Source: Atractiella rhizophila
Taxonomy: Eukaryota
Direction of reading: 5' to 3'
Assembly (NCBI GenBank): GCA_021432655.1
Contig: MU271319.1
Location: 35,514-94,200, forward strand
Length of the DNA stretch: 58,687 nucleotides
The position numbers and the translations under genes are program-made. Under the pieces are notes generated by a model. It was given only the letters and a program-made list of their open reading frames with translations, searched no databases and was not told where the DNA came from. Below are positions 31,070 through 55,152 of this stretch, piece after piece (position 1 is the stretch's first letter; each line of letters opens with the position of its first letter).

Positions 31070-32117
31070 GTTCTGCTTCGGCTCCTCCTCATATTACTTA
31101 CAACAAGGTTAGGATTAATGTAGAGTCGGTTTTGGAGACGGGTGGAGCGTGACGAGCAAGCGGAATCATCCCATAATCAAGATGGACTTTATCTATTGCC
31201 ACTGAGCTCGTCAAATTTTAAACTGTATTCCAAGCAATCACTAGTGAACCTGGCTGAGTAGCACAACAGCACGCTTTCGGCAGGACTGAAAGGAGCTGTG
31301 AGAGCTGCATGGGTGGCGGAGTGACATGTGCAAGTGGCGGGGAAATACGACCTCTCTAATCCTTCTGTTGGTGGATATTCATACTTTCCTCGCATGCACG
31401 CTACCCGTGCGACGCCTCCCATTCAAGTTAAGACGCGAGCGTGGGAGGGAAGTGTTCAACCGGTACGAGTCTGAGTCTGGGTACTCGAGGAGCATCCAGT
31501 GCGACTGACAGCTATCGGAGTGTTCCTGTCAGCGAATACCCGTTACCTGGGCTGTAGATGAGGTTTTATTTAAGCACAGAAGTTGAATTCATGCATTTCA
31601 ACTCACAACCACAACAAAAACGCTGAAGGGTCTTAACCTGTATGCTTCAAAATCACATGCCCGGAAAAAATGTCGCAACAAATGAATCTGCATTCCAAAG
31701 CACTACTTCTTGTTCCGACCACTTCACTGTAACGAACCCGTCGACTCAAGTCGCGCTTCCGTTGAATGCAACCCCTCACCGCAAAGTTGGAACAAAATCT
31801 CTTCCCAAGCCCTCAATACAACTTCACCAGTATCGAGGATCGAGGAGATTAAGGTCACGCATATTTGGACAGAGCGGCGACGCAAACGACAGTTTAGTTG
31901 GACATAAAAGCGCACTGGGTTCCAACGTCCGTCCCCACGTCTCTCTTCGTTCAAACTTGGAGAAATGCTTCTGTGCTACTACTACCTTGGGCTCTTCCCC
32001 TTGATGGCCTTCGCAGCTTCCAACCTCCTGTGAGTTTCCTCCTCCCCGAAATTGGACTTGTCTTACAATTAGACAAGGTCTCTTGAACGTTCGGAGGTTT
32101 CCAACAAGGGATTTTCT

Positions 32118-32876
32118 ATGCTGGACAGCAACACCGAACCCCAAATCGTCCTCGCTTCGAACTGGGATCCAGAGCACTTCTCTATCGATGAATACTTTGC
32201 TGCATTGATTAAGGCATACGAGAACGAAACCGATGGAACGGTCACGAATGCTAGTTTCTGGGATGTCCTCAAAAGCATCTTCTCCTCTCTCCCCTCTCAT
32301 CTGAAAGAACTCCACAAATTTGTCACCGACACCGTCTCCTCCATTCGAGAGATCTTTGAGTTGCCTGCCATGGAACCCATAATTGAGGGACTCGATGATC
32401 TTCCAAACAGCAGCTCGGGCGATCCTGTAGCCCAACGTTTTTACTCGCTGGCCAATGAACTGAAAAGTATCATTTGTGATGCTCTCGAGAAACGTACGGA
32501 TTGGAAAGACCTCAGTGCATCCACCATAGACGCGCTCAAGAAAGTTTATGAGGAAATCCAGAGTCTCTATACCTCTCACAAGCTGTCAGATTCTCCCAAG
32601 CCTCTCCGTCTCTTTCTGGGTGTCACCCTTGTCACTTCTGGCTTCATGATTCTTGCTAGCCCTCTCTTTCTGTGGACACTAGGATTTGGAACTGCGGGTG
32701 TTACCGCTCGAAGCTTTGCGGCTGCTATCCAGGCCATGATTGGGAATGTAGCGAAGGGATCGATTTTTGCGTTGTTTCAGAGTATTGGAGCCGCGGGGTT
32801 AGGATCAGATACGTTACTTGTTGCACGGGGTATGATTAGGTTGGGGATGATTTTCTTGATGTCATTAAAGGATTGA
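32118..32876 (+). CDS. IFI6/IFI27 (Ifi-6-16)-like domain protein; short upstream exons possible
   Basis: C-terminal LGFGTAGVTARSFAAAIQAMIGNVAKGSIFALFQSIGAAGLG is the hallmark Ifi-6-16 motif. It is preceded by a helical region with two similar halves. Confidence 0.75.
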   Translation: MLDSNTEPQIVLASNWDPEHFSIDEYFAALIKAYENETDGTVTNASFWDVLKSIFSSLPSHLKELHKFVTDTVSSIREIFELPAMEPIIEGLDDLPNSSSGDPVAQRFYSLANELKSIICDALEKRTDWKDLSASTIDALKKVYEEIQSLYTSHKLSDSPKPLRLFLGVTLVTSGFMILASPLFLWTLGFGTAGVTARSFAAAIQAMIGNVAKGSIFALFQSIGAAGLGSDTLLVARGMIRLGMIFLMSLKD

Positions 32877-33187
32877 TTGGAGACAGAAGGGTCAGTTGGA
32901 GTGTCACCAACATGTGCCAGTGGTGATACCGCAATGTACTCATATTTTGTTCATGCTGTATGTAAATTTCAAAGCTTGAAGAAATCCATGTCTCGATGGG
33001 TTCAACATTGACGACGACGATGATCTACATGATTCAAGGTTGGTGGTGCGGACTTGCTGGGACTTGGGTTGGGACAATTCTAGCTGGTGAAGACGCGAGC
33101 ACAGAGGTGTATTTGAGGAAGAAGGGAACTGCACCATCACACAATCAAAGAAGAGGGACAGGCAAGCTTCTATTCGAGGAGAAGTAC

Positions 33188-33614
33188 GCCTAGGAAGCAA
33201 AAAGCTATCGCATCGTACTCCCTTGCACCTCCCGACTGCCTTCATCTGTTCAATCCGTCTGCAGCCTCCACCATGTCCTCCATCTCCTCAACATTGTCAG
33301 AATTTTGATAGTCGAACTGCAGAGCAAGCTGGCTTAGCTCGTCCGGTGCTGGCTTGCTTGCGCTGGGCTCTCTCCACCTTCATTGACCATGCTTGCTCCA
33401 TAATGTCGCCAGACCTATCATTCTGATATATTTTAAACCTCCAATAATGACTCTTTAGTCTTGTTAGCTGAAAAAAGCGAGGCACGTCTGGGTTAAGGGG
33501 GAGAAGAATGAGTACAATCCCGCTCCTGCAAATGTCATGTCCTTGGAATTGTGGAAGTAGACAGCCCCACACAGAACTGTCACTAGAAGGGTACGTGGAG
33601 GGATGGGATCGAAG
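33188..33614 (+). repeat. ~420-bp direct repeat, copy 1
   Basis: Aligns end to end with 36888-37299 (e.g. GACTGCCTTCATCTGTTCAATCCGTCTGCA, CGTCCGGTGCTGGCTTGCTTGCGCTGGGCTCTCTCCACCTTCATTGA), with scattered substitutions and indels. Confidence 0.92.
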
Positions 33615-36600
33615 GGTTCAAGGGGCCATGCTCTTTGCGAGCGAGTTGGGGGGCCTGAGCGACGAGGGAGATGGAGATATCCTGGGAGATATCAATGGAG
33701 CCTTTGTCCTCCTAGTCAAAGTCGCAAAGTCGCGTCCATTTCTAATTCCTTCCCTCTATTTACCGTGCCTGAAACAACGACGGCCAGAGTGACGATAGAA
33801 GAAGCGCCGGAACATCGTGGCTACTCCAAACTCTCATCAGAGCACAAGCACGAGTTACAGGACGTATGCCAAACCGCTCCCTCTCCTCCCTTACCCATCC
33901 ATTCAAGCCATAACTGACTGTCGGTGTACAGCTCGCTCAAACCGCGCTTAGAGACTTAGCGGATATGAAACCAGTTATCAAAGCGAGATACTACGCCTGG
34001 GCTGCCTCCCAAGGTCAGCAACAGCCTGGTCCTACCTCGGCCGGAACACTATACAGCTACCAGAATTCGGAGCTTGCTCCTTTTCCTTCTTCCATCGGTA
34101 AAAATGCACAGCCCCGTCCAGGAACCAGAGGAAGTAGAAGGACAACGCATGAATTGATCACTCGCAGCGAGTTGCAGAATATGCCGATAGGCATTCCTAT
34201 CCAGCCTAACGATGGGAAGGAAGAAAAGGAGAAGGATAAACAGAAGCAAGGGTTTAGAAAATATTTTGGCGGGAATGGAAAGGAGAGATGGAAGGAGAAG
34301 TCACGAGCGTTCGACCAGAAGAATGGAGGAGTGTTTGGAATTCACCTCAGTGAAACTCTCAAGTATGCAAGCGTGGCTGTATCAATCTTTAACTCGGAAG
34401 ATGGGAAATCATACATCTAGTGAGCTCCGCATCATGTTCTCCTTTGGGGTCTTGCAGGTCTGATAGTTGGATTCGGGGCTAGTGGATACATTCCGATAGT
34501 GGTAGCGAAGTGTGCATTGTTTCTAAAAGAGAATGCGACAGAAACCGAAGGAGTTTTCGGAGTCTCAGGCTCTGCGAAACGGATGAAAGAGCTCCAAGCC
34601 ATCTTCGACGCACCTCCCAAGTACGGGATGGACCTGCAATGGTCAAATTACTCTGTTCACGACGCCGCAGGCGTTCTACGACGGTTTCTCAACATGATGC
34701 CTGTTAGTGTCGCACTTGCCTGCATTTGAGCGCGAGGAGCTATCGTCTGATCCGTGATAACATTATAGGAGCCAGTGGTTCCTTACGACTTGTATCACAG
34801 CTTTCGGGACTGTCTCACTTACCCTGGACAATCACTAGACGACAAAATCCAACACTTTCGTCTACTTCTCCTCTCGGTCCCTCCTTCTTCCCAATGTCTT
34901 CTTCTCTATGTCCTCGACTTCCTCCTCGTCTTCTCTCGCAACTCTTGCGTCAACCTAATGACAGCCTCCAACCTGGCAGTCCTGTTTCAGCCAGGTTTGG
35001 TCCGTCCTCCAGAGGCCGATCTAACAAATCTTGGGGAATCGACTGCACAAGGCATTAAGGCGTTAGCAGAAGCGGAAGCCAACGGTCACAAGAGCAGTCA
35101 GGAGATTTTGAAATTCCTGATTGAGCATCAAGACCATTTTCTCCTAGGTCTAGGTCCTCCACCGAAGGTCAGTTTCTCCCCTGCATCTGCCAACGCGACC
35201 GCAGTCGCTTCTCAGTCTTCCATCCCCCAACCCCAACTTCAGCAACCAGCACTAGTCCTTTTGATCACCCCAGTAAGATTCAAACATGGCACCCCGATCC
35301 ATATATCCATTCTTCCCTCTTTCCTTGCTCGCCTACCTCCATCGATTCACACGCTCCGCATCACGTTTGTCTCACTCCCTCTAACTATGAGCTTCTATTA
35401 TGGGCAGTATTCTCCGAAATCGTCCTACTTCTCTCTTGAATGCCTTGATAATGCAGTCGAATCCGACGGTGCAGCGAATCTTCGCATCACGTTGGAGGAG
35501 CAAATTACAGTAACTTTTGGGGACACCAAACATCTAGCATTCCCGCACGTTTCGCCCTCCATATGCACGTTTCGCCTTTCAAATAATCGCTCGCAGGCCA
35601 TCTTTAACCCCATTGCGCGATACTCCAAACTGGAACGGCGTTTCGTTTCTATCAGTGAATGGGAAGGATCAACCATCCCATCTACCCATCTGGGGACCAT
35701 TGTCCAACTCTCCCTCTCCCCAACTCAAACTCTAGGGATTAATCCATGCCCTATCGCACAGCTACCTACCGAGATCATCTCTATCATCTTCGAGTCCCTT
35801 TTATTCGATCCAAATGGAAGGCTCATCAAAGGTTCTCTCGTTTCCGTCCGGCGACTTTCTGCCGTCTGTCGGCTCTGGAAGGCTCTTTCAGTCCCTTATT
35901 TGAATGAAGATGTTTCTGTGAAGGAGAGGCATGCTCGTTTGAAAGCCTATCCTAATGCCGGACGTTTGTGGGAAGTTATCCGGTTTCAGACAAGTTTTGA
36001 CAATGATATCAGCGTTGACATGGCGAAAGACGTCGTCACAGGCTCGCCGAATGTTACGCGCGTGTGGATGGAAGCAATGTGGGATGAAGAGGAGGCGAAG
36101 AGTTTGTTGCATGCGATTGAAGGCTTGACGAGGTTGGAGGAGGTAATCTTTGGACGAGAAGGTTGGAGAAAGTGGAAGAAGGATGAGGTAGAGAATTTTA
36201 TGCGGAGGATGGGTGACAGGATCAGATACTTTGATGCTTACTACGTGGAGGACTCTATCCCTTCATCATCACCAGGCCTTCAATTGCCTTCTGGCATCAA
36301 AAGCCTAGGGCTTCTTGCATACCCACCTCTCCAATCGCTCTCCTTCCCATACACCCTCATGCATTTACGTCTCTCCAACCTGTGTCCGCTCCCTCCCTCC
36401 GTCTCAGGCACCTGTCTTCCGCCTCTTCTAGAACAGCTGGATATCAAGCTTGCCCCCTACTCACCTGATGGGAAGATCTCCGTCCTACCCACTCCCCTCG
36501 ACCTATCACACCTCAAACATCTCACTGAGCTCTACCTTGACGGTGGCATGGAAACTTCAAACCTCATTTCCCCTCAGTTCTTCCACACCCTCACAAAAGC

Positions 36601-36886
36601 AAAAGCAATAAATGTCATAGATGTTCAGTACTGTGTGGTGGACTGGGAATTCATGGGGTTTGTATTCTCAGACTTCATCCGCGGGTTCTTTGGCGACAGG
36701 GGAGCGAATGAGGAGTGGGATATGATGGGTGAAGTTGTGGAACCGAGACAATGCTATTTGAGGGTTCAGCTATTCTTTGGAGAGTGGCCTGAGGAAGAGA
36801 TATACAAGGCCGGGAGCACTTTGAGAGAGTTTGGGGTGAGGGAGGGGGACGAAGATAGTTGGGTTCGGGAAGGAGGAGAAGCATGA
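33603..36886 (+). CDS. Chimeric protein: Sac7-like RhoGAP domain lacking the arginine finger, fused to an F-box-like motif and LRR-like region (~1028 aa)
   Basis: Phase-consistent exons 33603-33863, 33932-34419, 34483-34702 and 34769-36886. RhoGAP motifs GVFG..L, YIY|GYIPIVVAKC, EGVFGVSGS, VHDAAGVLRRFL, NLMTASNLAVLFQPG. The same last exon has PIAQLPTEIISIIF...LSAVCRLWKALSVPYL (F-box-like) followed by LxxLxL repeats. Confidence 0.82.
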
Positions 36887-36887
36887 T

Positions 36888-37299
36888 GCCTAGGAAGAAA
36901 AAAGCTATCACATCATACTCCTTTGCGCCCCTGACTGCCTTCATCTGTTCAATCCGTCTGCACCTCCACCATGTCCTCCATCTCCTCAACATTGTCAGAA
37001 TCTTGATAGTCAAACTGCAGAGCAAGCTGGCGAAGCTCGTCCGGTGCTGGCTTGCTTGCGCTGGGCTCTCTCCACCTTCATTGATCATGCTTGCTCCATA
37101 TTGTCAGCAGACCTTTCATTCTCATATCTTTTAAACCTTCAATAATGACTCTTTAGTCTTGTCAGCTGAAAGAAACGAGGCATGTCTGGGTTCAGGAGGT
37201 GAAGAATGAGTACAATGACGCTCCGTCATGTCCTTGGAGTTGTGGAAATAGACAGCCCCATGCAGAACTGTCAGTAGAAGGGTATGTGAGGGATCGAAG
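36888..37299 (+). repeat. ~420-bp direct repeat, copy 2
   Basis: Homologous to 33188-33614; starts immediately after the stop codon of the RhoGAP/F-box ORF. Confidence 0.92.
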
Positions 37300-38816
37300 T
37301 GTGCAAACGAGGACGGGAAGAAGTTCGTTGATGGAGTTGAGAGAAATAACAACGTATGAAATAGGCATTGTTATAAACCATGATGCTCTGGACTCCAGGC
37401 TATGAGAAAAGCGGATGAATAGGTTGGAATGCACCTGTTCCATAAAGCCACAAGAGACCTTGGAAAAGACAATTTCAGAAGGTAAACTCTGCATGCACCG
37501 AATTCTTTCCACGCTTCCACTTTGAGGCAAATATTCGCACACGAGATGGTGGATCAAAGCTTCTTTTACAGCCAGAAAAGTTGCAAGGTATTCCTTGTTC
37601 GAGAGAGAAGGCATATCTGGGTCTGAATTGACCTTCCATTCCTACTCATTTTGAGGAGCTGAAGTGTTTGGCATGAAGCAAACCGCATACACACCGTATG
37701 ACATAATTGATCTCCAAGGGTCTTCTAATGATTACTCTACCTCCTAATACGAGCTTTTCCGCCGATCCAACCTTTATTAAATGTGGTTGAATTTAATTGT
37801 AGCTTTTCCAGAACATAAATGCATTTTGAAGACCCAAAGCTTCTCAAGGATTGATATCTAGTGGGTTCAGCCTGCGTTATTTCGAAAGAGACAGACTCGA
37901 TGGCACGAGACACCGTCCTCAGATGCCACGTTAATATTGATGATGAGGAACAAAGTTCAAATTCAAATCACCTGATTATGATTGAGGACGCCTGCTTAGC
38001 CAGGATCGTGGCAATTACCACGCCATGAAGCGAGAAAAAGTCCGGCGACTTCACCTCAGGTTTCTGAGTGCTGGCCACAACTGCAGCCCAGCTGGCATTC
38101 GAAATTGATTGTTCTTCAATACTCCTCGCTGGCGAAAATAAGCTCAAATCAGAGTAGATTACGGGGACTTACTGTGACGATCCGAACTCTCTTGTCGGCT
38201 TCTGTTCTATCCAACGTTTGAGGCTGAGGAGGAGTTGAGGTGCCGTCCCGGCTAAGACTCGTTACGACTGCGGAACGCGGCGAGGTTGCTTGGAGGGAAG
38301 GGAATCTGGCCTTGCTTTCGACTCGTTCATCGTGGAAGAGGAAGAAAAGGGCCGTTCCTCGGGAGCAATGGAGGATAATTTGGTTGTTGGCTTGGGTTCA
38401 GAAAGACGGAGGCCAGGCAGGATCGAAGGACGATCTCCAAGGATCAAAGAGGAAGAAGGAGGACCACCCGGACTCGCTGGACGATCTGGTCAAAATATTC
38501 GACGGACTAGAATTAGGGCTGGAGTTACCCAAGAAGACGTCGAGGGAGCTGAACGGGAAACGATCAAGGCTGAAGTCGGCCTCACGCCTGACAATCTAAT
38601 GCAGCTTTATTATGTTATACGTCACAAACCCTTTTTTCAATCGACATTCGACTTGGGAACAACACACGCGCGATTTGGTCGTGGCTCATCAAGCGAAGTT
38701 GCAGTCTGAATCGACATTGCATTACGGCGACGCCTCCTGCAATGGCTCGATCGTCTATGGATCAATGGTGAGAGCATCAGCCAGTCATTTTGCCAACGCT
38801 GAAAGGGAAGGGAGGT

Positions 38817-39533
38817 AAGAAAAAGTCCTTATCAGAGGAAGAGAAAGACCTCGGCCTCCTGAAGCTAGAAAGCCTAACAGGTCGGTTCTTACTTTTCCTA
38901 TACAAGCGTCCTTATGTTCTTTTGCCAGAGCGAGCACAAAAAACGCTCTCCCCCTAACGCCGTCAGGCAAAGCGTTATCTCGCTCAGAAGGTTGCAGATG
39001 AGAGTGAACAAGGGTGAGGATAAAGAGGATCATCTGGATCTGACCGGCAAAGCCAAATCGGTTCGCATCTACAGTCTCGTTCAAGTGCCGCTTGCCTGGC
39101 GTGTAACAGGAGCAAACTTGCTGACGAGACGGAAGATGACGATTTGACCGACCAAACCGAGTATTTTCGTTCTCCCAGTTTGTATTGTTCTAAAACGGAG
39201 AGTAGGTATCCCGTCAACGGCTCGCGCCATGCCGCTTGCCCCTAAAGTCACCTGGTGCGTCATATTCTTTGCCTCTGTACCTGCTGATACGTGATACTTT
39301 GTATGATTAGGCGTGCAAGCAAACCACTTAGCGCTCCGTCATCTGAGCAAACTTCAAGCCGCGACTGAGCGAACACTACAGACTTCAGGAAACAAAGACA
39401 TTGCAACCAAACACCCAGCAACTCGAGGCAAAGGTAAAGCTGGAAGAAGATCAGCCGCACCAACTCGGTATACGAGGTATGCCATTGCCGCTCTACCAGC
39501 ACTTGAGGTTTGACGGAGGAATAGGTCTACAAG
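38817..39533 (-). repeat. Inverted, more diverged partial copy of the 1.4-kb repeat unit
   Basis: Reverse complement of ~43301-44078 and ~44720-45490. The same peptides (VERxWHTSYTELVRLIF; SASLLLLHARQAALERDCRCEPIWLCRSDPD) appear on opposite strands in the ORF track. Confidence 0.9.
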
Positions 39534-42788: not shown

Positions 42789-42979
42789 AAGGCGGATGTT
42801 CACATCGAAGCTTTTGAGTGAACGGAGTTGAAAGGTGTTTGATTGAAGGGGATCCAAAAGATCGAGTTCTTATTACTGCACCGAAAGGCGGATGTTCACA
42901 TCGAAGCTTTTGAGTGAACGGAGTTGAAAGGTGTTTGATTGAAGGGGATCCAAAAGATCGAGTTCTTATTACTGCACCG
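42789..42979 (+). repeat. Tandem duplication of a ~96-bp unit
   Basis: AAGGCGGATGTTCACATCGAAGC...TTATTACTGCACCG occurs twice in succession. A diverged relative lies at ~40555-40682. Confidence 0.95.
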
Positions 42980-45760
42980 CACCCTTGCTGCATTGACTGT
43001 TGCCCATCCACTTACACTGCCGGCCGCAAAAACACGAAATCCATAGATTTTCGCAACAATCGGTGTTCTCAGAAATGCAGAACACGAAAACAACCTGGCA
43101 CAGAAGCTGAATCTGTAGTTGAGAAAAAAAGTAAGAATCAGGTTGTGTAAAACCGCGTCAAACATGTATTATATCCAACAGGGGTCACAATTATGCGTTT
43201 AAACAAATCAATTGTCGTTTGCCTGTTGGTCAGATGGCAGTAAAACTGAACCACTTACCTCTCATCCTCACTCCCCGCCGAGGAAACAGCACGCGTATTC
43301 CTTGTAGACCTATTCCTCCGTCAGACCTCAAGTGCCGGTAGAGCGGCGATGGCATACCTCGTATACCGAGTTGGTGCGGCTGATCTTCGTCCGCCTTTAC
43401 CTTTGCCTCGAGTTGCAGTGTGTTTGGTTGCAATGTCTTTGTTTCCTGAAGTCTGTAGTGTTCGCTCAGTTGCTATGGAGGTTGCTGACGGTGCCTAAGA
43501 AGCAGGACGGGTAGAAGTTGGCTTAGATGACGGAGCGCTAAGTGGTTTGCTTACACGCCTAATCATACAAAGTATCACGTGTCAGCAGGTACAGAGGCAA
43601 AGAATATGACGCACCAGGCGACTTTGGAGGCAGGAGCGGTATGGCTCGAGTCGTTGATGGGAACCCTACTCCCCGTTTTAGAACAATACAAACTGGGAGA
43701 ACGAAAATACTAGGTTGGGCGGTCACATCGTCATCTTCCGTCTCGTCAGCAAGTTTGCTCCTGTTACACGCCAGGCAAGCGGCACTTGAACGAGACTGTA
43801 GATGCGAACCTATTTGGCTTTGCCGGTCAGATCCAGACGTTCCTCTTTATCCTCATCCTCGCTGTCCTGTTCACTCTCGCTCTCATCTGTAACCTTCTGA
43901 GCGAGATATCGGTTTGCCTGACTCTTGGCGTTCCGGGGGAGGAGCGTTTCTCGTGCTCGCTTTGACAAAAAGAACTATTCAAGGGAAACTTGCATAGTAA
44001 AAGTAAGAATCCACCTGATAGGCTTGCTAACTTCAGGGGGCCGAGGTCTTTCTTCTCCTCTGAAGAGGACTTTTTCTTCCCTTTCTTCTTCGCGTTCGTG
44101 GATTTACTGCCTCCGGCTTTTGACCTATCATTTCGTCAAGTCGTGTAGGAACGAGTTATCCAACTTTCACTTCGCCTTCTTTGATACGGCTGTCGCGTCA
44201 GTTTCTCGAGTTAGTTTGGCGTGGCCGCTCGATTTCACCATGGATCTCCATCCAAGCTTCCGCAAAATGAAGATCATCGTCGTCGCTGCCTGCGAGCTCT
44301 TTGAGCTATCTATCCTTCAAACTTTTCTCGAACTTCTTGAGAGCGTTATGATTGAAGGGGATCCAAAAGATCGAGTTCTTATTACTGCACCGTGACCGCA
44401 CCCTTGCTGCATTGACTGTTGCCCATCCACTTACACGGCCGGCCGCAAAAACACGAAATCCATAGATTTTCGCAACAATCGGTGCTCTCAGAAATGCAGA
44501 ACACGAAAACAACCTGGCACAGAAGCTGAATCCGTAGTTGAGATAAAAGTAAGAATCAGGTCGTGTAAAACCGCGTCAAACATGTATTACATCCAACAGG
44601 GGTCACAATTATGCGTTTAAATAAATCAATCGTCGCTTTGCCTGTTGGTCAGATGGCATTAAAACTGAACCACTTACCTCTCATCCTCACTCCCCGCCGA
44701 GGAAACAGCACGCCTATTCCTTGTAGACCTATTCCTCCGTGAGACCTCAAGTGCTGGTAGAGCGGCGATGGCATACCTCGTATACCGAGTTGGTGTGGCT
44801 GATCTTCCTCCAGCTTTACCTTTGCCTCGAGTTGCAGGTTGTTTGGTTGCAATGTCTTTGTTTCCTGAAGTCTGTAGTTCGCTCAGTTGCTATGGAGGTT
44901 GCCGACGGTGCTTAAGAAGCAGGACGGTTAGAAGTTGGCTTAGATGATGGAGCGCCAAGTGGTTTGCTTGCACGCCTAATCATACAATGTATCACGTATC
45001 AGCAGGTACAGAGGAAAAGAATATGACGCACCAGGCGACTTTGGAGGCAGGAGCGGTATGGCGCGAGTCGTTGATGGGAACCCTACTCTCCGTTTTAGAA
45101 CAATACAAACTGGGAGAACGAAAATACTCGGTTGGGCAGTCACATCGTCATCTTCCGTCTCGTCAGCAGGTTTGCTCCTGTTACACGCCAGGCAAGCGGC
45201 CCACGAACGAGACTGTAGATGTGAACCGATTTGGCTTTGCCGGAGCCTCAGATCCAGACGTTCCTCTTTATCCTCATCCTCGCTGTCCTGTTCACTCTCA
45301 TCTCTAACCTTCTGAGCGAGATATCGGTTTGCCTGACTCTTGACGTTACGGGGAGGAGCGTTTCTCGTGCACGCTTTGGCAAAAGAACTATTCAAGGGAA
45401 ACTTGCATAGTAAAAGTAAGAATCCACCTGATAGGCTTGCTAACTTCAGGAGGCCGAGGTCTTTCTTCTCCGCTGATGAGGACTTTTTCTTCCCTTTCTT
45501 CTTCGCGTTCGTGGATTTACTGCCTCCGGCTTTTGACTTATCATTTCGTCAACTCGTGCAGGAACGAGTTATCCAACTTTCGCCTCGCCTTCTTTGATAC
45601 GGCTGTCGCGTCAGTTTCTCGAGTCAGTTTGGCGTGGCCGCTCGATTTCACCATGGATCTCAATCCATGCTTCCGCAAAATGAAGATCATCGTCGTCGCG
45701 GCCTGCGAGCTCTTTGGGCTATCTATCCTTCAAACTTTTCTCGAACTTCTTGAGAGCGTT
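42937..45760 (+). repeat. Tandem duplication of a ~1.41-kb unit (42937-44348 and 44349-45760) containing a decayed minus-strand coding fragment
   Basis: Both units start TGATTGAAGGGGATCCAAAAGATCG and end CTTCTTGAGAGCGTT. The ORF track gives paired near-identical peptides (43230/44649, 43641/45058, 43925/45437). Confidence 0.95.
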
Positions 45761-46398
45761 TTAGAAATAGCGTCAGGGAGTGGCCAACGCTGACACCGCG
45801 GGTGAGGACAGGAAGGGAGTGGCCAACGCTGACACCGCGGGTGAGGACAGGTCAGGGGTAGCCCAGGATAGGCATCTCACATCTTTGACCTCAGATATCT
45901 AGATAGCCATGCCTTTGGCTTTCCACTCGTTCAGCTGACTGGAAGCCACAACCTTGAAAGAAGCTGGCAAAACAGCTTGCACTGTTCCTCTGAACAAGTC
46001 AGCACCAATCGTTCGGGGTTGGATCCGACAACTTATGGACCCATTGTATATCTGCTTGATGATGTCCAAACGAAGATCATAGAGGACTAGCTCATCTGTC
46101 GGCTGGTCAAGGTTCTCGCTGATACGCTGTGCGCGCGAGAAACTCGCTTGAGAGAAACTCACAGAGTGGCGACCCCTCTGAGATCGGTCTGATCGACCAT
46201 CGTGCTGCAATCTGATGATGTTTTGGCCTACCTCGTCACCGTGATCGTCGTATACACATTCAAAATATCGAGAGAGAGGACGTGACGGTCTTTTGCATCC
46301 TTCCTCCGATGGGCAGCCGATGAGAAACAGTAGACGGTGGCAAGTAGAAGGGGCATTGTCGCAGTGGTTGGTTCCCCGACGTTTCTGGCGAAAGTACA
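45718..46398 (+). repeat. ~650-bp dispersed direct repeat, copy 1 (with an internal 38-bp tandem duplication at 45775-45851)
   Basis: Matches 49186-49830 from GCTATCTATCCTTCAAAC to GGCGAAAGTACA. Confidence 0.93.
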
Positions 46399-48509
46399 AT
46401 CCTGCAAAGCAACGAACCGAAACGTTTAGAACAAAGGAAGCTTTGGAGGCCGAAGGTTGAAAAGAGAGGTTTTGAGAACTCCAATCATCCCACATCTCAT
46501 CAACACCTCCCCTTACCCTTACCGCTACAGGCAGCTTTCTCTTGATTGTTCTGCTGGCAATCGAGGCAGAAGGAGAGCCTTGACAGATGTTCTGCCTGGG
46601 ATCATCTACATTGTGCTGGGACTTGTAGATGGTGTTGATCGACAGAGCTTCCCAATAGCGGCTTAGACCCTGATTGTCCGGTGGCAATCGAGGAACGGGC
46701 ACTACTTTACGAGATCTCTCCCTTTAGTCTTGCGGCTCGAAGAAGCCTGGACCCCTATCCGCCATCTCGCGTAGACGCTCCACAATCGAGTTCGATTAAT
46801 GTATCGTTACTCAGATTGGATTTCGAGAACAGACTCACCTATGCCACTTGGCAGTTTTTACGCAGTTTTTAGGGGCTGTTCAATTTACTTAGGAGTCGGA
46901 GTCGGTCGGCGTTAAAACTGGTCCAAAAGCTGTTGAAAAGTTTTGGACCGAATAACCAAAGCGCAATACCGCGCTTGGGAGTGCAAACTGTTTCCCAATC
47001 GTTCGCTCAAAATGGTTGTGCGCTTTAGTATTGAGAACGTTTGCAGCCAAAAGCCGACGTCAAAACGAGACCACTTTATCGCCGATCATCGATCATCGAT
47101 CACTCCATCTCCGCTGATTTACCAACGTCCGGACGTTGTTGAAAACTACGAGTCCTTCGCTGATCTCGTCAGTTATTTCTTCTCCAGCGTCCATTTGCAG
47201 ATATCAAACTGAGTCCATCAAAATGGCACAAATTTCGGCGGGGGAGGATGGAATGAGGGCATGATCTCTCTTTTTCTTTTTCTCATCACCTAACGTAAGC
47301 TTTGGGCTGTGGTCTGGCATCTTTTTTCAGGAAATGATTGAGCAGCAACCATCAATCCCATGCACAGGCGTTCAGGAGCCAGACTCGAGTGCCACGGCCT
47401 TGTTCAAGGAAGATCGCCAGCAAAACTTGATTGCTCACGCGACCAGCATTCAAACTCCCACCAACACATCCGAACTTTCGACCTCAGGACCCTTCGCGAC
47501 AGGTGTCATGATTGTGGACTCTCCGCAATCTGACTACCACGAACCCCCTTCATTTACTCCTCCTGATTTCATACCCGGAAAGCACGCATTGGTCCTCGCC
47601 AACCCTGCCACCACCTCCGTTTCGAAGCTCAAATTGTCTCTCGGACCAATCTCCCAAATCCCACCTTTCAATCCAAAGCGCGCAAAACCTGCTACACCCC
47701 GAGGCAAACCTGCCACAACGCCAATCATGGAGGAAAGCGGAAGAGTATCTCATCACTTCAATCATCCTATCACTTTTACCCCACTTGTACGTCCTCTTAT
47801 CCTATACTTCGGAAGATAATGCTGATGGACTACCAAGAATGACCCAGGCCAAGGCCATGCTGCTTCGTCCTCAGCTTCTTCCACCGAGACGGTGAGGAGA
47901 TGTTCTTTTCGCTGAAGTCGAGTCATAAAAGTGGATTTTGATCCAGGAGGTGGCAGCGAATCCATTTTTTCATGATCGCGCCTTGAAGAACAGAGCTTCG
48001 ATCCACGTGAAAGAGGATTTCTCACCCTTCAAAAGCGGCACAGCCAGGGATCCATCGTCAGTTAGTCAGTTAGCCTTTGCCCCATCGATCTTGCTACTAC
48101 TATTCCTTCGTGACGGAACTGTTCCGTCAGTCAAATTTGGCTGGGGAACAGAGTTAGGGTCAGGGCCAGGGTGAGTCCCGTCAGCCCAGTTGCGAGGCTC
48201 TGACTGACGGAACTAACCTGACGGGATGGAACGCACCGTTGAGTCCCGTCAGCTCTGACGCGACGGCCAAATTGTCTTGCAAGGTGGGGATCAGCACCGA
48301 CGCGAAGCTCAAACATGCGAGGTTCATTGCGAGGGCGCCAAGTTCGCTACCAGTCGCGAAGTAGGCACTTCGGGTCGCTGGCTGGCTGCAACGTGCGAAG
48401 TGCCTTCCAGTCGCGAAAGGTCAAGTTTGGTTCAGCAATGGGTGGCAACCTGCGAAGGGCCTCTGTAGTTGAGAGGGAGCAGGCTCGCAAGAAAGCAGAT
48501 GTGCGAGAG

Positions 48510-49185
48510 AGCACACTCGAGAGACGGCCAACTTGCGAGACGGCCAACTCGCGAGATAGCAAACTAGCGAGGTGAACCGAAACGCTAGGTTGCAAACTCG
48601 CGAGACGGCAACAAACTCGCGAGACAGCTAACTGGCGAGACTGCCAACTCGCGAGATGGCCAACTCGCGAGACTGCAAACCACCGAGACGGCCAACTAGC
48701 AAGAAAGCAAACTTGTGAGAATGCGAGCTCCGAGATGGCCAACTTGCGAGACAGCAAACTAGCGAGGTAGGTGAAACGCTAAGTTGCTAACTCGCGAGAG
48801 AGCAACAAACTCGTGAGACAGCAAATTAGCGAAGAGCACTCGCGAGACTGCCAACTCGCGAGACGCCCAACTCGCGAGACTGCCAACTCGCGAGACGCCC
48901 AACTCGCGAGACAGCAAACCCGCGAGACGGCCAAGTAGCGAGAATGCTGTCTCGTGAGACTGCAAATGCGAGAGAGCAAACTCGCAAGGTGGCCAACTCG
49001 CAAGCATGCAAACTCACGAGACTGCCAACGCGAGAGAGCAAACTCGCGAGACGGCCAACTCGCGAGATAGCAAACTAGCGAGGTGAACCGAAACGCTAGG
49101 TTGCAAACTCGCGAGACGGCAACAAACTCGCGAGACAGCAAACTGGCGAGAGTGCCACCTCGCGAGACGGCCAACTCGCGAGACA
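48510..49185. repeat. Degenerate tandem array of ~15-18-bp units with palindromic core CTCGCGAG (consensus ~GCCAACTCGCGAGAC)
   Basis: Roughly 35-40 units read directly. A 94-bp higher-order block at 48535-48628 is repeated exactly at 49046-49139, with a variant near 48735-48830. Confidence 0.93.
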
Positions 49186-49830
49186 GCTATCTATCCTTCA
49201 AACTTTTCTCGAACTTCTTGAGAGCGTTTTAGAAATAGCGTCAGGGAGTGGCCAACGCTGACACCGCGGGTGAGGACAGGTCAGGGGTAGCCCAGGATAG
49301 GCATCTCACATCTTTGACCTCAGATATCTAGATAGCCATGCCTTTGGCTTTCCACTCGTTCAGCTGACTGGAAGCCACAACCTTGAAAGAAGCTGGCAAA
49401 ACAGCTTGCACTGTTCCTCTGAACAAGTTAGCACCAATCGTTCGAGGTTGGATCCGAGAAACTTATGGACCTATTGTATATCTGCTTGATGATGTCCAAA
49501 CGAAGACCATAGAGGACTAGCTCATCTGTCGGCCGGTCAAGATTCTCGCTGCTCGATACGTTGTGCGAGCGAGAAACTCGCTTGAGAGAAACTCACAGAG
49601 TGACGACCCCTCTGAGATCGGTCTGATCGACCATCGTGCTGCAATCTGATGATGTTTGGCCTACCTCGTCACCAAGATCGTCGTATATACATTCAGAATA
49701 TCGAGAGAGAGGACATGAAGGTCTTTTGCATCCTTCTCCGATGGGCAGCCGATGAGAAACAGTAGACGGTGAAAAGTAGAAGAGGCATTGTCGCAGTGGT
49801 TGGTTCCCCGACATTTCTGGCGAAAGTACA
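49186..49830 (+). repeat. ~650-bp dispersed direct repeat, copy 2
   Basis: Matches 45718-46398 and abuts the CTCGCGAG array directly. Confidence 0.93.
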
Positions 49831-51191: not shown

Positions 51192-52199
51192 TTATACATC
51201 AAACGTCACACTGCCATCCCCATACAGCGCGAACGAAGCCCAGTGCTTCGGTTCCGCTCGCCCAGGCACCCGCATGTACTCCGTTAGGGTCTCTCTGACC
51301 AGCTCTGCCATCGACTTAACCTCAAGCCGGCGTGATAGTCGGATCTTACGCAGCAAGTTTGTCGAAATTGGAACTATATCTTCTTGCAGCACCGTGTGAA
51401 GAGTTCCCAGTACACTTTGTGAGCCAGCCAAGATGAAGGAGTTGATGAATCCGAGATAGTCGTCGGTGGGGGAGTTTCGACCTTGCAGGCTTCCACACCC
51501 AGCCAAGATAGTTGTCGTTGCTCTAAGTTGAAGTTCTGTTACTCGACGAGCTGTGAGGAGCCCATTATCCGCCATAAGGAAAGCAGCCGAAAGGGGATCA
51601 AGTGGATCGATAGTGGCATCCGCATGGCTCAAGAAGTATATCAAGTCAGCTTCCGGCATGGCTTGGACACATGCTTGAGCCGTCGCATGCACTCCAAGAA
51701 GAAGGGTTGAAGGGGAGTGCTCTTGGTGCAATTCTCGAAAGGCTTGCTCGCATCGTTCCTGTTCAACAGGATCCAGATGGAAACGGCGGCCAGCAGGGAA
51801 CGCCATTAGGAGCTCGTTTGAGGTTGCTTCACCCTCTCTTGTCGCTCGTAGACCCACCAGCGAGAGCAGCGAAAGGCTATATGAGACTGGATTTCGCACA
51901 AGAAGGTATTGGTCATTGAGTTTGAGCGCATGTAAAGGAATGCGGTACATCTCCTTGGTTGGGATCAGAATCAAGTGCTGATTGGGCTTTGTGTGATCCT
52001 GTAGCGGTTGGATGAGATAGGCAAAGTGTTCCAGAAGATTGGCTCCTTCTGCATACCAGGCCTCCGAGTCACCAAGCTCTCCCCTTTTGTGAATCTCGCT
52101 CGAGTACTCCTTATTCAGGTCAATCAGGACCGGTTGGTTCACAGGACCGTTGCATATCATGAGATAAAGGCTATCCAGTATTGTGATCCATTCCACAAC
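51192..52199 (-). pseudogene. CHAT-domain (caspase-HetF/separase-like peptidase) gene, 5'-truncated by the adjacent transposon
   Basis: LILIPTKEMYRIPLHAL, IYFLSHAD (catalytic His), LLTARRV, ILAGCGS (catalytic Cys), FILAGSQSVLGTLHTV, HWASFALYG. The ORF has no own start: its first 8 annotated residues come from the transposon end (52200-52223). Confidence 0.8.
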
Positions 52200-52546
52200 T
52201 ATGACGTGCATTTCGGGCCACAACTAGACTCACCAAAGTGACCAACCCAGCCTACCAACCCAACCAATCAGACCAACCACACTAACCAGGAAGACTTACC
52301 AAAAGGACCGACTAGCTTGATTGACATGACCGACCAGACTGATCAAACAACATACAATCAAGGTGTATGGAGAGTGGAATTGAAACAATTGAATCGTTGT
52401 CAAAGTGAGCAGAGACCTAATAAGAAAAGACCTCAGCTTGTGCTGGAGCTCAATAGTATATAATATGACGTTGTTCACGCACATGTGCAAACTTTATTAG
52501 ATGCTTCACCTTGATTTCAGCAATCACAGAACGTTCAAGCAATGCA

Positions 52547-54355
52547 ATGGCCAGGGGAAGAAGGCTAAGGGAAGAAGCACGTCGATTTGCACGCAATCCG
52601 ACACAAGCACGCCCTTGGGTTCAGTCACAAGGGCAATCAGCCGTGCAGAATGGTTCAGACCTGCTTCCGTTCGCTGCAGATGAGGTACGAAAGGTCCAGG
52701 AAGCTGTGTACGAATGCACACTCCCAATCTACAACTTCAGCCGTCAGCTTTCAAGCTTCTATACTGCCCGCCGATTCCTTGCTCTTCCTGAGGTTCTCAA
52801 CCGCCTACAACAAGTCATCAACCTCTATGTCTCTCTCAAGCCCCTTCTGCCATATCAAGAAATCTTTGCTCCTACTCTAGTCAAACTCATGAACTTGCGT
52901 GAGGAGCTTGGGAACCTGGAGGAGACAGCTGGGGATGTTCTTCCACAATTAGGGCAACAATTGTTTGAAATTGGACCCAGTGGACGTCGACGTATCAAGA
53001 TTGACCATGACTTATTCGTCTACTTGGTGAAGAACAAAATTCCGGCTCCTGAGATCGCCTTTCTGCTTGGTGGGGTTAGTGAAAGGACAGTAAAGAGAAG
53101 GAAACAAGAGTGGGGTCTATCAAAGAAGCTTTGGCCCAAGATCAGTAAGGACGACTTGCACGAACTTGTTCAACGTCTTAGAGCGTCAGGAGATATCTAT
53201 GTCGGAGAGATTGGAATGTTAGCTGCAGTGCACTCTTGTGGCGTAAGAGTTGATCGAGAAGAATTAAGAGAAGTCTTAAGGGAGGTGGATCCAATTGGAG
53301 TGATGGAGCGATGGGCTGGCCGAATCAAACGCCGAACATATTCTGTTCCTTTTGTCTTTTCTCTGTGGCATATTGATGGTATATTTTGGCACTTTTCAAG
53401 TTCCAACCTGAAAGTCTTTGAATAGGGTATATGGCACTTATTCGCTGGTCCTTACCTATTCATGGCGGAATAGATGGGTTCTCAAGGCTCTGTGTCTATC
53501 TTTTCATTGCGGACAATAATCGGGCCGAAACAGTCCTGAAGGCATTTGAGCAAGGATGTCAAAGGTATGGCTGGCCAAGTCGTGTAAGGTGTGATTTCGG
53601 CGGGGAGTTTGAAGAAGTAGAGAAGAAGATTATTTCAGTCAGAGGAGCCGGTCGAGGTGTGTGAATCCTGTACAAACTGATAAGAAATGTTAATCAGACA
53701 AGGATAGCTTCTCTCATTCGTGGATCTTCCACACGAAACCAACGAATCGAACGCTTATGGGTCGATGTTTGGAGATGGGTCATCCGGCTCTATTACACAT
53801 TGTTCTATTTCTTAGAACATGAAGGGCTTCTCAATGCAGAGAACGAAGCAGATATCTGGATCCTTCATTATGTCTTTATTCCTCGCATCCAATCTCACCT
53901 CGATCACTTTCGTGAAAATCTCTGGAATAATCACAAGATCAGCACAGAAAGCTCAAAGACTCCATGGCAACTCTATATAACTGGTAATGTCAAGTCCTGA
54001 AGAGGTCTTTGTTGCTGTTCTGAGACATTTTACAGGTCGCATACGTGCTGAAAAACGAGGTTTCCGTCTCAATTTAGATCCATTTCATGCTCAAACCTCA
54101 AATGACGATCATGAGACAGCAGGTATTGATTTTACTGAATATGGTGTTGATCACGACATTGGACGGGCTCGGAAGAACACAGACCCTCATGTCGAAGTCA
54201 ATCCACCTGCACGTTTTCTCACAGCAAGCGAATATGCCATATTGAAGGCAGAAGTTCCTGTCAGCACCAGGTCAGCAACTGACAACTGGGGACTGGATAC
54301 TTATATTGCTGCTCGTAACGTCATTGCAACACTGATCTGTAAGAGGCGAACATAA
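52547..54355 (+). CDS. DDE transposase, integrase-core/IS3EU type
   Basis: Four exons (introns ~53379-53425, ~53658-53707, ~53984-54035). HTH EIAFLLGGVSERTVKRR, then LREVDP.G...IKRRTYSVP..FSLWHIDG|YMALIRW..IHGGIDGFSR, YGWPSRVRCDFGGE, GSSTRNQRIERLWVDV, WNNHKISTE..TPWQL. The D-D-E triad is intact. Confidence 0.9.
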
Positions 54356-54687
54356 TTGAGGAGTTCTGATACAGTAGTTCGTTTTCTTTTAATCCTAACA
54401 ACAAAAGCATACAGTATAATTATTCACGTTTACACTAAATAATGAATAAAGAGCATTTTATTCCCTATCTGAATCTTCTAATGGAACATCATTCCCAATT
54501 ATGCTAGAAAAAGGCACACTTTCCCTCATTACTTCAATAGCCTTATCAGGTTGATCAAATATTCCTAGGTCTTGTGCAATTAATCTCCAGCCCACCTTAG
54601 GAACCACAATCTTCTCCATGACATCACTAAACACTGGAATCTTCTTCGACTGTTTGTACCACTTTGCTTTGGAGAAGAGGTCCTTAT
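54317..54687 (+). repeat. 371-bp direct repeat, copy 1 (3' ends of both transposon genes)
   Basis: Aligns without gaps to 54782-55152 (offset 465); I count 7 differences, all transitions. Confidence 0.95.
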
Positions 54688-54780
54688 GGGTTAGGGTTAG
54701 GGTTAGGGTTAGGGTTAGGGTTAGGGTTAGGGTTAGGGTTAGGGTTAGGGTTAGGGTTAGGGTTAGGGTTAGGGTTAGGG
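54688..54780 (+). repeat. Interstitial telomeric tract GGG(TTAGGG)15
   Basis: 93 bp of perfect canonical fungal telomere repeat, G-rich strand on + (orientation of a right-hand chromosome end). Confidence 0.99.
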
Positions 54781-54781
54781 A

Positions 54782-55152
54782 AATGTCGTTGCAACACTGA
54801 TCTGTAAGAGGCGAACATAATTGAGGAGTTCTGATACAGTAGTTCGTTTTCTTTCAATCCTAACAACAAAAGTATACGGTATAATTATTCACGTTTACAC
54901 TAAATAGTGAATAAAGAGCATTTTATTCCCTATCTGAATCTTCTAATGGAACATCATTCCCAATTATGCTAGAAAAAGGCACACTTTCCCTCATTACTTC
55001 AATAGCCTTATCAGGTTGATCAAATATTCCTAGGTCTTGTGCAATTAATCTCCAGCCCACCTCAGGAACCACAATCTTCTCCATGACATCACTAAACACT
55101 GGAATCTTCTTCGACTGTTTGTACCACTTTGCTTTGGAGAAGAGGTCCTTAT
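54782..55152 (+). repeat. 371-bp direct repeat, copy 2
   Basis: Matches 54317-54687 and continues into the remainder of transposon ORF2. Confidence 0.95.

Follow-up and report, generated by a model that had tools for sequence, protein, structure and literature searches.

Does a gene that joins an arginine-less Rho GTPase-activating protein (RhoGAP) domain to an F-box and leucine-rich repeats (LRRs) make a new kind of regulator, or is it a product of gene shuffling that still carries an idle half? We examined such a gene in a window of 58,687 nt (the whole stretch of DNA analyzed here, to which all coordinates refer) from contig MU271319.1 of the root-associated fungus Atractiella rhizophila (GenBank assembly GCA_021432655.1, positions 35,514–94,200 of the forward strand). 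The gene is a chimera of a copied Sac7-like RhoGAP segment and a member of a large Atractiella F-box/LRR family (Table 1). We consider it probable that the chimera arose recently by gene shuffling, that its GAP half is carried along as a passenger released from constraint, and that its F-box/LRR half is an FBXL-like adaptor of Skp1–cullin–F-box (SCF) ubiquitin ligases.

A Sac7-like RhoGAP copy joined to an F-box/LRR gene

An open reading frame (ORF) at 34769–36886 (+) runs stop-free for 705 aa. It starts with the second half of the RhoGAP domain (PF00620 at residues 1–81; Pfam expect value, E, of 3.6e-14), the first half being encoded in the preceding exon. An F-box-like match follows ∼250 residues downstream (residues 329–374) and scores 19.1 bits vs. 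a gathering score of 24.3. A 165-aa beta-rich domain sits between GAP and F-box. Pfam matched only RhoGAP and F-box-like domains on the chimera, with no NB-ARC or NACHT core. A preliminary description of this DNA had placed the C-terminal half of the RhoGAP and the F-box-like motif in one uninterrupted exon and had read the catalytic motif as EGVFGVSGS, with a GGA codon at 34559–34561. Both statements hold; the frame around the codon translates as EGVFGVSGSA. Its gene start at 33603 fares less well. That ATG is in frame only with intron 33729–33787 retained, and the intron is removed in at least some transcripts (see below), leaving the start ambiguous among ATGs at 33508, 33603, and 33965 (open models of 1040, 1028, and 930 aa, respectively).

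The description had called for a parental gene elsewhere in the genome that keeps its arginine, and there is one. The parent is P0041 (KAH8918096.1), a 413-aa Sac7-like RhoGAP of A. rhizophila that reads EGVFRVSGS and whose homologs are named SAC7 or BAG7. The chimera is 88% identical to it over the GAP region, with no gap in 239 aligned residues. The arginine finger is kept in 215 of 216 other homologs (the remaining one is not covered there) and in 118 of 118 close outgroups, which come from the best 120 of 448 near-length homolog matches. The glycine of the chimera aligns with the arginine of the p190RhoGAP and myosin-IXb GAP chains. Judged by its sequence, the chimera is of Sac7 ancestry, lacks the arginine finger, and is not a catalytic RhoGAP. 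Because the GAP copy retains two introns, it appears to be a DNA-level duplication and not a retrocopy.

Downstream from the junction, whose alanine can be assigned to either the parent or the family side, the whole conserved body of an F-box/LRR family protein is retained. Upstream, a 5′ extension replaces the parent's N-terminus with its WWK motif; this extension (33508–34282) had no Pfam or Atlas match, and no match to P0041 was found before parent residue 37. Although its name mentions only RhoGAP, the public model of the locus (P0001; KAH8923547.1) already contains both RhoGAP and F-box; it ends early via an intron at ∼35963–36012.

All 42 matches of a first homolog search were named Atractiella rhizophila. 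An F-box profile built from the Atractiella family matched none of the 216 Sac7-like homologs, and a metagenome scan with P0041 returned 27 loci, none of which was the Atractiella parent or the chimera by identity and coverage. Across these homolog and metagenome searches, the fusion was found in one genome only. These results support the description's view of a young chimeric gene and agree with its remark that no fungal architecture of this kind was known to it; among titles and abstract openings in the literature, we found no fungal RhoGAP–F-box protein, and no Atractiella paper listed had a title concerned with this gene. Separately, PF02230 is joined to Sac7 models repeatedly in Sanghuangporus, Rhizoctonia, and Ceratobasidium (P0161, P0163, P0164, P0170–P0171, and others), as either real fusions or merged neighbors.

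Table 1. Parts of the chimeric gene and its flanking repeats (window coordinates)
Feature	Coordinates	Strand	Basis
Direct repeat copy 1 (∼440 bp), upstream of the gene	33176..33621		88–89% identical to 36873–37306
5′ extension, low complexity, open in frame, in three exon pieces (to 33728; 33788–33863; from 33932)	33508..34282	+	Open models, X3 splicing
Duplicated Sac7-like RhoGAP segment (parent residues ∼37–319), with introns 34420–34482 and 34703–34768	34283..35251	+	88% identity to P0041
Arginine-finger codon changed to Gly; GGA here, CGA in the parent	34559..34561	+	Codon read, paralogous contig
Fusion junction: chimera QQPA/LVLLITP, parent PQPA/SPTT, family ESIA/LVHLITP	35249..35254	+	Protein alignment; crossed by DNA contigs and X3 record 19
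N-terminal beta-rich domain of the Atractiella family	35252..35749	+	∼60% identity to paralogs; AlphaFold, mostly strands
F-box-like motif (LP.EI..IF ... L..VC..W) with a ∼10-residue insertion	35750..35893	+	PF12937 E 0.0011, under gathering score
LRR solenoid, through to the stop codon	35960..36886	+	Model and Foldseek
Direct repeat copy 2, beginning in the gene's last codons	36873..37306		Repeat comparison

Support for the codon, the junction, and the transcript

Two DNA sequencing runs (X1 and X2) come from one sample, from which the assembly itself may have been made; they therefore corroborate the sequence and do not represent independent strains. Their contigs over 33390–34594 have no differing letters, and a second, paralogous DNA contig that aligns from 34283 separately carries C at 34559 (CGA). 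A read error at the GGA codon is therefore rejected. The junction is spanned by contigs at 35116–35589 (X1) and 35116–35880 (X2) with no differences, which rejects an assembly join; the contigs have full single-copy depth, and the junction is therefore on both haplotypes.

A further run (X3) is unlabeled and behaves as RNA. Its record 18 (500 letters) joins a 127-base exon end to 34769–35141 with no other letters, showing that intron 34703–34768 is spliced in a chimera-specific sequence. Record 17 joins 61 bases of the preceding exon to 33932–34188, removing intron 33864–33931, and a joint from 33728 to 33803 skips intron 33729–33787. Splicing is thus seen for three chimera introns; intron 34420–34482 is placed by protein homology and the NCBI model P0001. 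Record 19 covers 35116–36188 (1073 bases, one other letter, no gap). Its start lies 135 bases within GAP-derived sequence, and from there it passes over the junction, the F-box, and the intron site of the public model. This supports transcription across the GAP/F-box junction, although a contig that spans two genes is no proof of a single transcript molecule. Parent and copy are both expressed, with X3 depths along the chimera of 94, 113, and 160 vs. 197 at the parent's splice joint (rough figures).

The G allele is absent from the X3 contigs, among which only a parent-type contig covers 34515–34564; we suggest that assembly may have collapsed the two copies. Run X4, a root metatranscriptome, gave mostly short paralog-like pieces and was uninformative on the fusion. 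Colinearity with the parent protein and the ungapped record 19 led us to reject an intron at 35168 (GTCAGT donor). Record 19 likewise has no gap at the LRR intron of the NCBI model, which could still occur in a minor isoform.

Part of the first exon of the chimera (33605–33765) has ∼20–40× single-copy depth in the DNA runs, so that some of this stretch is a repeated element; 33927–34248 is single-copy in these runs. Probable allele differences include 10 half-depth letters in the first repeat (33312–33387), where half-depth variant contigs suggest two alleles, a 6-base gap at ∼33795–33802 in DNA contigs vs. the window, and four residue-changing X3 letters at 34118–34149.

Amino acid changes in the GAP half

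Our reading of selection rests on the amino acid pattern, as the parent's DNA is visible at six differences only. Chimera and parent differ at 24 of 239 aligned residues, of which 19 changes were polarized as chimera-derived, two as parent-derived, and three were ambiguous. A relative-rate test gave a median of 12 chimera-only changes vs. one parent-only change, with p<0.05 for 118 of 118 outgroups. Eight of the 24 differences fall at columns that are ≥90% conserved (99 of the 239 columns). All eight are chimera-derived, with the parent keeping the consensus: S32T, I40V, G64A, R79G, K102M, S116G, A182S, and E241K (P0001 numbering, used throughout). Among 763 outgroup pairs of 85%–93% identity, which are non-independent, conserved-site changes averaged 1.9 with a maximum of seven, and no pair reached eight. 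The preliminary description had found the other GAP motifs well preserved. This holds in that Rho-contact residues are kept; it fails at the seven further near-invariant Sac7 residues that are altered.

The distribution of these changes resembles that of random missense mutations. The share of chimera-derived changes at conserved sites is 8/19 (0.42), vs. 0.42 under simulated random missense, and by profile score the observed changes are not milder than simulated ones (P 0.21–0.23). No coding indels were found in 239 codons, vs. at least three one-base indels in 129 intron bases (P 0.02–0.07), a weak sign that the frame has been kept. The amino acid pattern of the GAP half appears close to neutral decay, which weakens a functional reading. 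Because the 19 chimera-derived changes follow a neutral-like distribution, the loss of the arginine would be one event in a general release from Sac7 constraints. The description's proposal of a selected pseudo-GAP, acting as trap or decoy, is accordingly left unsupported: the observed share lies near the neutral decay that the description itself had named as the contrary outcome.

The F-box/LRR half and its Atractiella family

The frame and the F-box/LRR half of the chimera are intact. This half is 60%–69% identical to its nearest paralogs among the matches listed, and it deviates at 19 of 197 family-conserved columns, mostly conservatively, ranking 19th of 33 members. Within it, the beta-rich domain (∼60% identical to paralogs) was modeled by AlphaFold mostly as strands with a predicted local distance difference test score (pLDDT) of 70.8. 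The domain had no Foldseek match at E≤0.001; its best VIA Z was 3.4, to immunoglobulin/fibronectin type III-like sandwiches, which is no proof of a new fold. In the family at large, PF12937 is matched by 29 of 33 aligned members and PF00646 by 13 of 33 (E≤0.1; best PF12937 value 5.8e-9). The LRR core model has a pLDDT of 77–95 over residues 221–400, and in the model and by Foldseek its solenoid lies C-terminal to the F-box. Foldseek matched the LRRs to NLRC4, COI1, FBXL17, Dia2, TIR1, and D3 (E 2.5e-4 to 1e-3; template modeling scores ∼0.3). At most, then, we infer that the product is an FBXL-like SCF adaptor.

A search with a family profile recovered 99 proteins; for 43 of these, E was ≤1e-30. 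Of eight matches traced, seven were from Atractiella; the eighth, a weak F-box-only match, was from Gymnopilus. Many of the family models are fragments. Among 52 proteins with the domain start, seven have more than 100 residues before it, and in P0268 a 713-aa tetratricopeptide repeat (TPR) array is joined at the same family position as the GAP segment. Going by these gene models, the family takes foreign heads repeatedly. Further mixed models were seen in P0282 (TPR) and P0302 (two SH3 domains); P0040 and P0266 likewise join the family to such domains or to other N-terminal regions.

Origin of the chimera and alternative explanations

In the explanation we favor, a Sac7-like RhoGAP gene would have been copied at the DNA level with its introns, minus its own N-terminus and tail, and would have fused in frame with a gene of the expanded beta-domain/F-box/LRR family at that gene's conserved start. 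Around the chimera lie a 5′ piece that seems foreign and two direct repeats of 440 bp, and the flanking repeats would fit a template-switching insertion or circle recombination. If working, the product of 930–1040 aa would bind Skp1 through its F-box and substrates through its LRRs, as its paralogs would; both expectations derive from family resemblance. The GAP half, freed of the job of Sac7, would drift and become catalytically crippled, its frame kept for the sake of the downstream F-box/LRR half. A folded GAP domain may still touch Rho1-GTP, and the sequence carries no sign of selection for such contact. The locus offers a clear example, open to dating, of how a housekeeping regulator can be copied into an adaptor family that is expanding fast. 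Should the GAP half be a passenger, as seems likely, it would caution that fusions of dead enzymes arise easily in this genome and call for a selection test before function is proposed.

Several observations weigh against this account. The six parent differences seen in DNA comprise four synonymous and two replacement changes, a ratio that hints at some constraint. Apart from R79G, the changes at conserved sites (seven) are milder than random (P 0.025), in one of five post-hoc tests, with P 0.70 for the core domain. A random change had only an 8%–9% chance of hitting the Arg codon. Residues R119, N194, V197, and P201 are the same as in the parent; they were mapped to p50 Lys319, Asn391, Val394, and Pro398 via p190 and chimaerin alignments and not via p50 itself, and the roles of these positions as Rho-binding determinants are taken from the accessible part of PMC8305018. 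On the other half, constraint on the F-box/LRR sequence may predate the fusion. Finally, the gene models of long-headed family members are unverified, and P0002, counted among the seven, consists of a partial tandem of family sequence.

A somewhat unlikely alternative is that the gene as a whole is a by-product, transcribed but not yet broken, with neither half now under selection. The neutral look of the GAP half suits this view, and so does its open frame, because with ∼1 stop expected per 22 missense changes such a frame would survive by chance in about one case in three. All four variant letters of X3 record 17, in the 5′ extension, change a residue, and the many fragmentary family models point the same way. 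Over all 785 fused codons, however, ∼2.8 stops would be expected, with P ∼0.06 for none (by arithmetic, assuming the same age for fusion and duplication). The lack of coding indels beside those in the introns, the splicing of three introns, and the presence of the junction on both haplotypes also count against this view.

It is unlikely that the chimera is a working pseudo-GAP adaptor, in which the Arg-less domain would bind Rho1-GTP and deliver it to SCF, shield it from the parent GAP, or bait attackers of Sac7 or Rho1. Loss of the arginine would then have been selected, as a trap or against an excess GAP dose, and the other changes would reflect release from Sac7-specific contacts. The Rho-contact positions are kept; at ∼9% change per site, however, four or five named residues would be kept by chance more often than not (by arithmetic), conserved sites are not depleted of changes, and V198L adjoins the binding patch. 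The mildness of the changes other than the arginine (post hoc, as noted) favors a working domain, as does the occurrence of some changed residues in active RhoGAPs (G116 and S182 in p190). Chimera-specific spliced contigs have a depth of 94 vs. 197 for the parent (a rough figure), which also counts in its favor. FBXL substrates bind the C-terminal LRR, while here the GAP lies N-terminal, behind a 165-aa domain, and the fusion is known from a single genome. Precedent comes from OCRL1, which without the arginine binds Rac1-GTP and does not hydrolyze it, according to the accessible part of PMC8305018, and from Candida albicans, in which Sac7, a Rho1 GAP, binds GTP-Rho1, according to that of PMC5772354. 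The accessible part of PMC4700482 has nothing on a GAP-dead Sac7, and the argument from dosage is our own inference. Were the GAP half bait, it would reveal destruction as a new means of turning Rho1 off and would support a decoy role for the fungus's F-box/LRR repertoire.

We are more doubtful still that the family captures host domains as baits, which would make the chimera either a natural Rho1 degrader, with the Arg-less Sac7 copy holding Rho1-GTP and the F-box recruiting SCF, or a decoy for proteins attacking the cell-wall-integrity switch. Such a device, if real, would give fungi an equivalent of integrated decoys, carried on a ubiquitin ligase adaptor instead of a nucleotide-binding LRR receptor (NLR). 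It is highly improbable that the locus holds two transcription units that overlap, with the ATG at 35387 as start of the F-box gene, or that it is an assembly artifact: the limit on what a contig over two genes proves, the X3 depth that climbs along the gene (94, then 113, then 160), and the early end of the public model are outweighed by the stop-free sequence between the halves, by the position of that ATG 45 residues within the family's conserved domain, by the ungapped 1073 bases of record 19 that begin inside GAP-derived sequence, and by the DNA contigs of two runs that cross the junction without differences.

Comparison with known proteins

The closest relatives of the GAP half are the Sac7/Bag7 Rho1 GAPs, with which it shares 88% GAP identity (to P0041), a Sac7-type segment before the GAP core, and the Rho-contact residues. 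It differs from them in its glycine finger and seven more near-invariant changes, in the replacement of the N-terminal WWK motif and the C-terminal tail, and in the attached F-box/LRR.

Animal RhoGAP-like proteins without the arginine are old, conserved genes. OCRL1, INPP5B, ARHGAP36, FAM13B, and DEPDC1 resemble the chimera in carrying a RhoGAP fold without the catalytic arginine in a multidomain protein, and noncatalytic roles exist for such domains, according to the accessible parts of PMC8305018 and PMC8128262. In those sources the animal proteins are conserved with demonstrated noncatalytic roles, whereas the chimera occurs in one genome without a conservation signature.

The order of F-box-like motif then LRR solenoid is shared with FBXL17, COI1, TIR1, D3, and yeast Dia2; Dia2 also bears an extra N-terminal domain. 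Unlike these adaptors, the chimera belongs to an Atractiella-specific family with an added beta domain, and its F-box is under the Pfam cut-off. Plant integrated-decoy NLRs are receptors that carry a fused host-gene copy. The chimera is similar in that a host-gene copy has lost catalysis and been fused into a fast-expanding, receptor-like family; it differs in having no NB-ARC or NACHT and in that the added domain is seen in one genome, without a sign of recurrence or conservation. Dictyostelium GacFF probably has an F-box first together with a RhoGAP, without this LRR, and is of unrelated origin. In the accessible part of PMC2474670, GacFF is named only as a RacGAP.

Other features of the window

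The upstream neighbor of the chimera (32073–32876, +) encodes an Ifi-6-16 (interferon-induced 6-16 family) domain (E 3.6e-13). Recent duplications lie downstream at 38807–39533, 42936–45760, and 45718–49830, and comprise a tandem pair of 1.4 kb (95%), a copy in inverted orientation (85%), and a pair of 0.7 kb (90%); a minisatellite with a 16-bp unit occupies ∼48466–49235. An open frame at 51195–52223 (−) carries a CHAT (caspase-like protease) domain (Pfam E 3e-32). The 318-aa open frame at 52469–53425 (+) had no Pfam match at E≤0.001; by eye, it ends like the start of a transposase or integrase. Finally, at 54317–55152, an internal array of TTAGGG telomere repeats (∼54688–54780) lies between two 371-bp direct repeats that are 98% identical.

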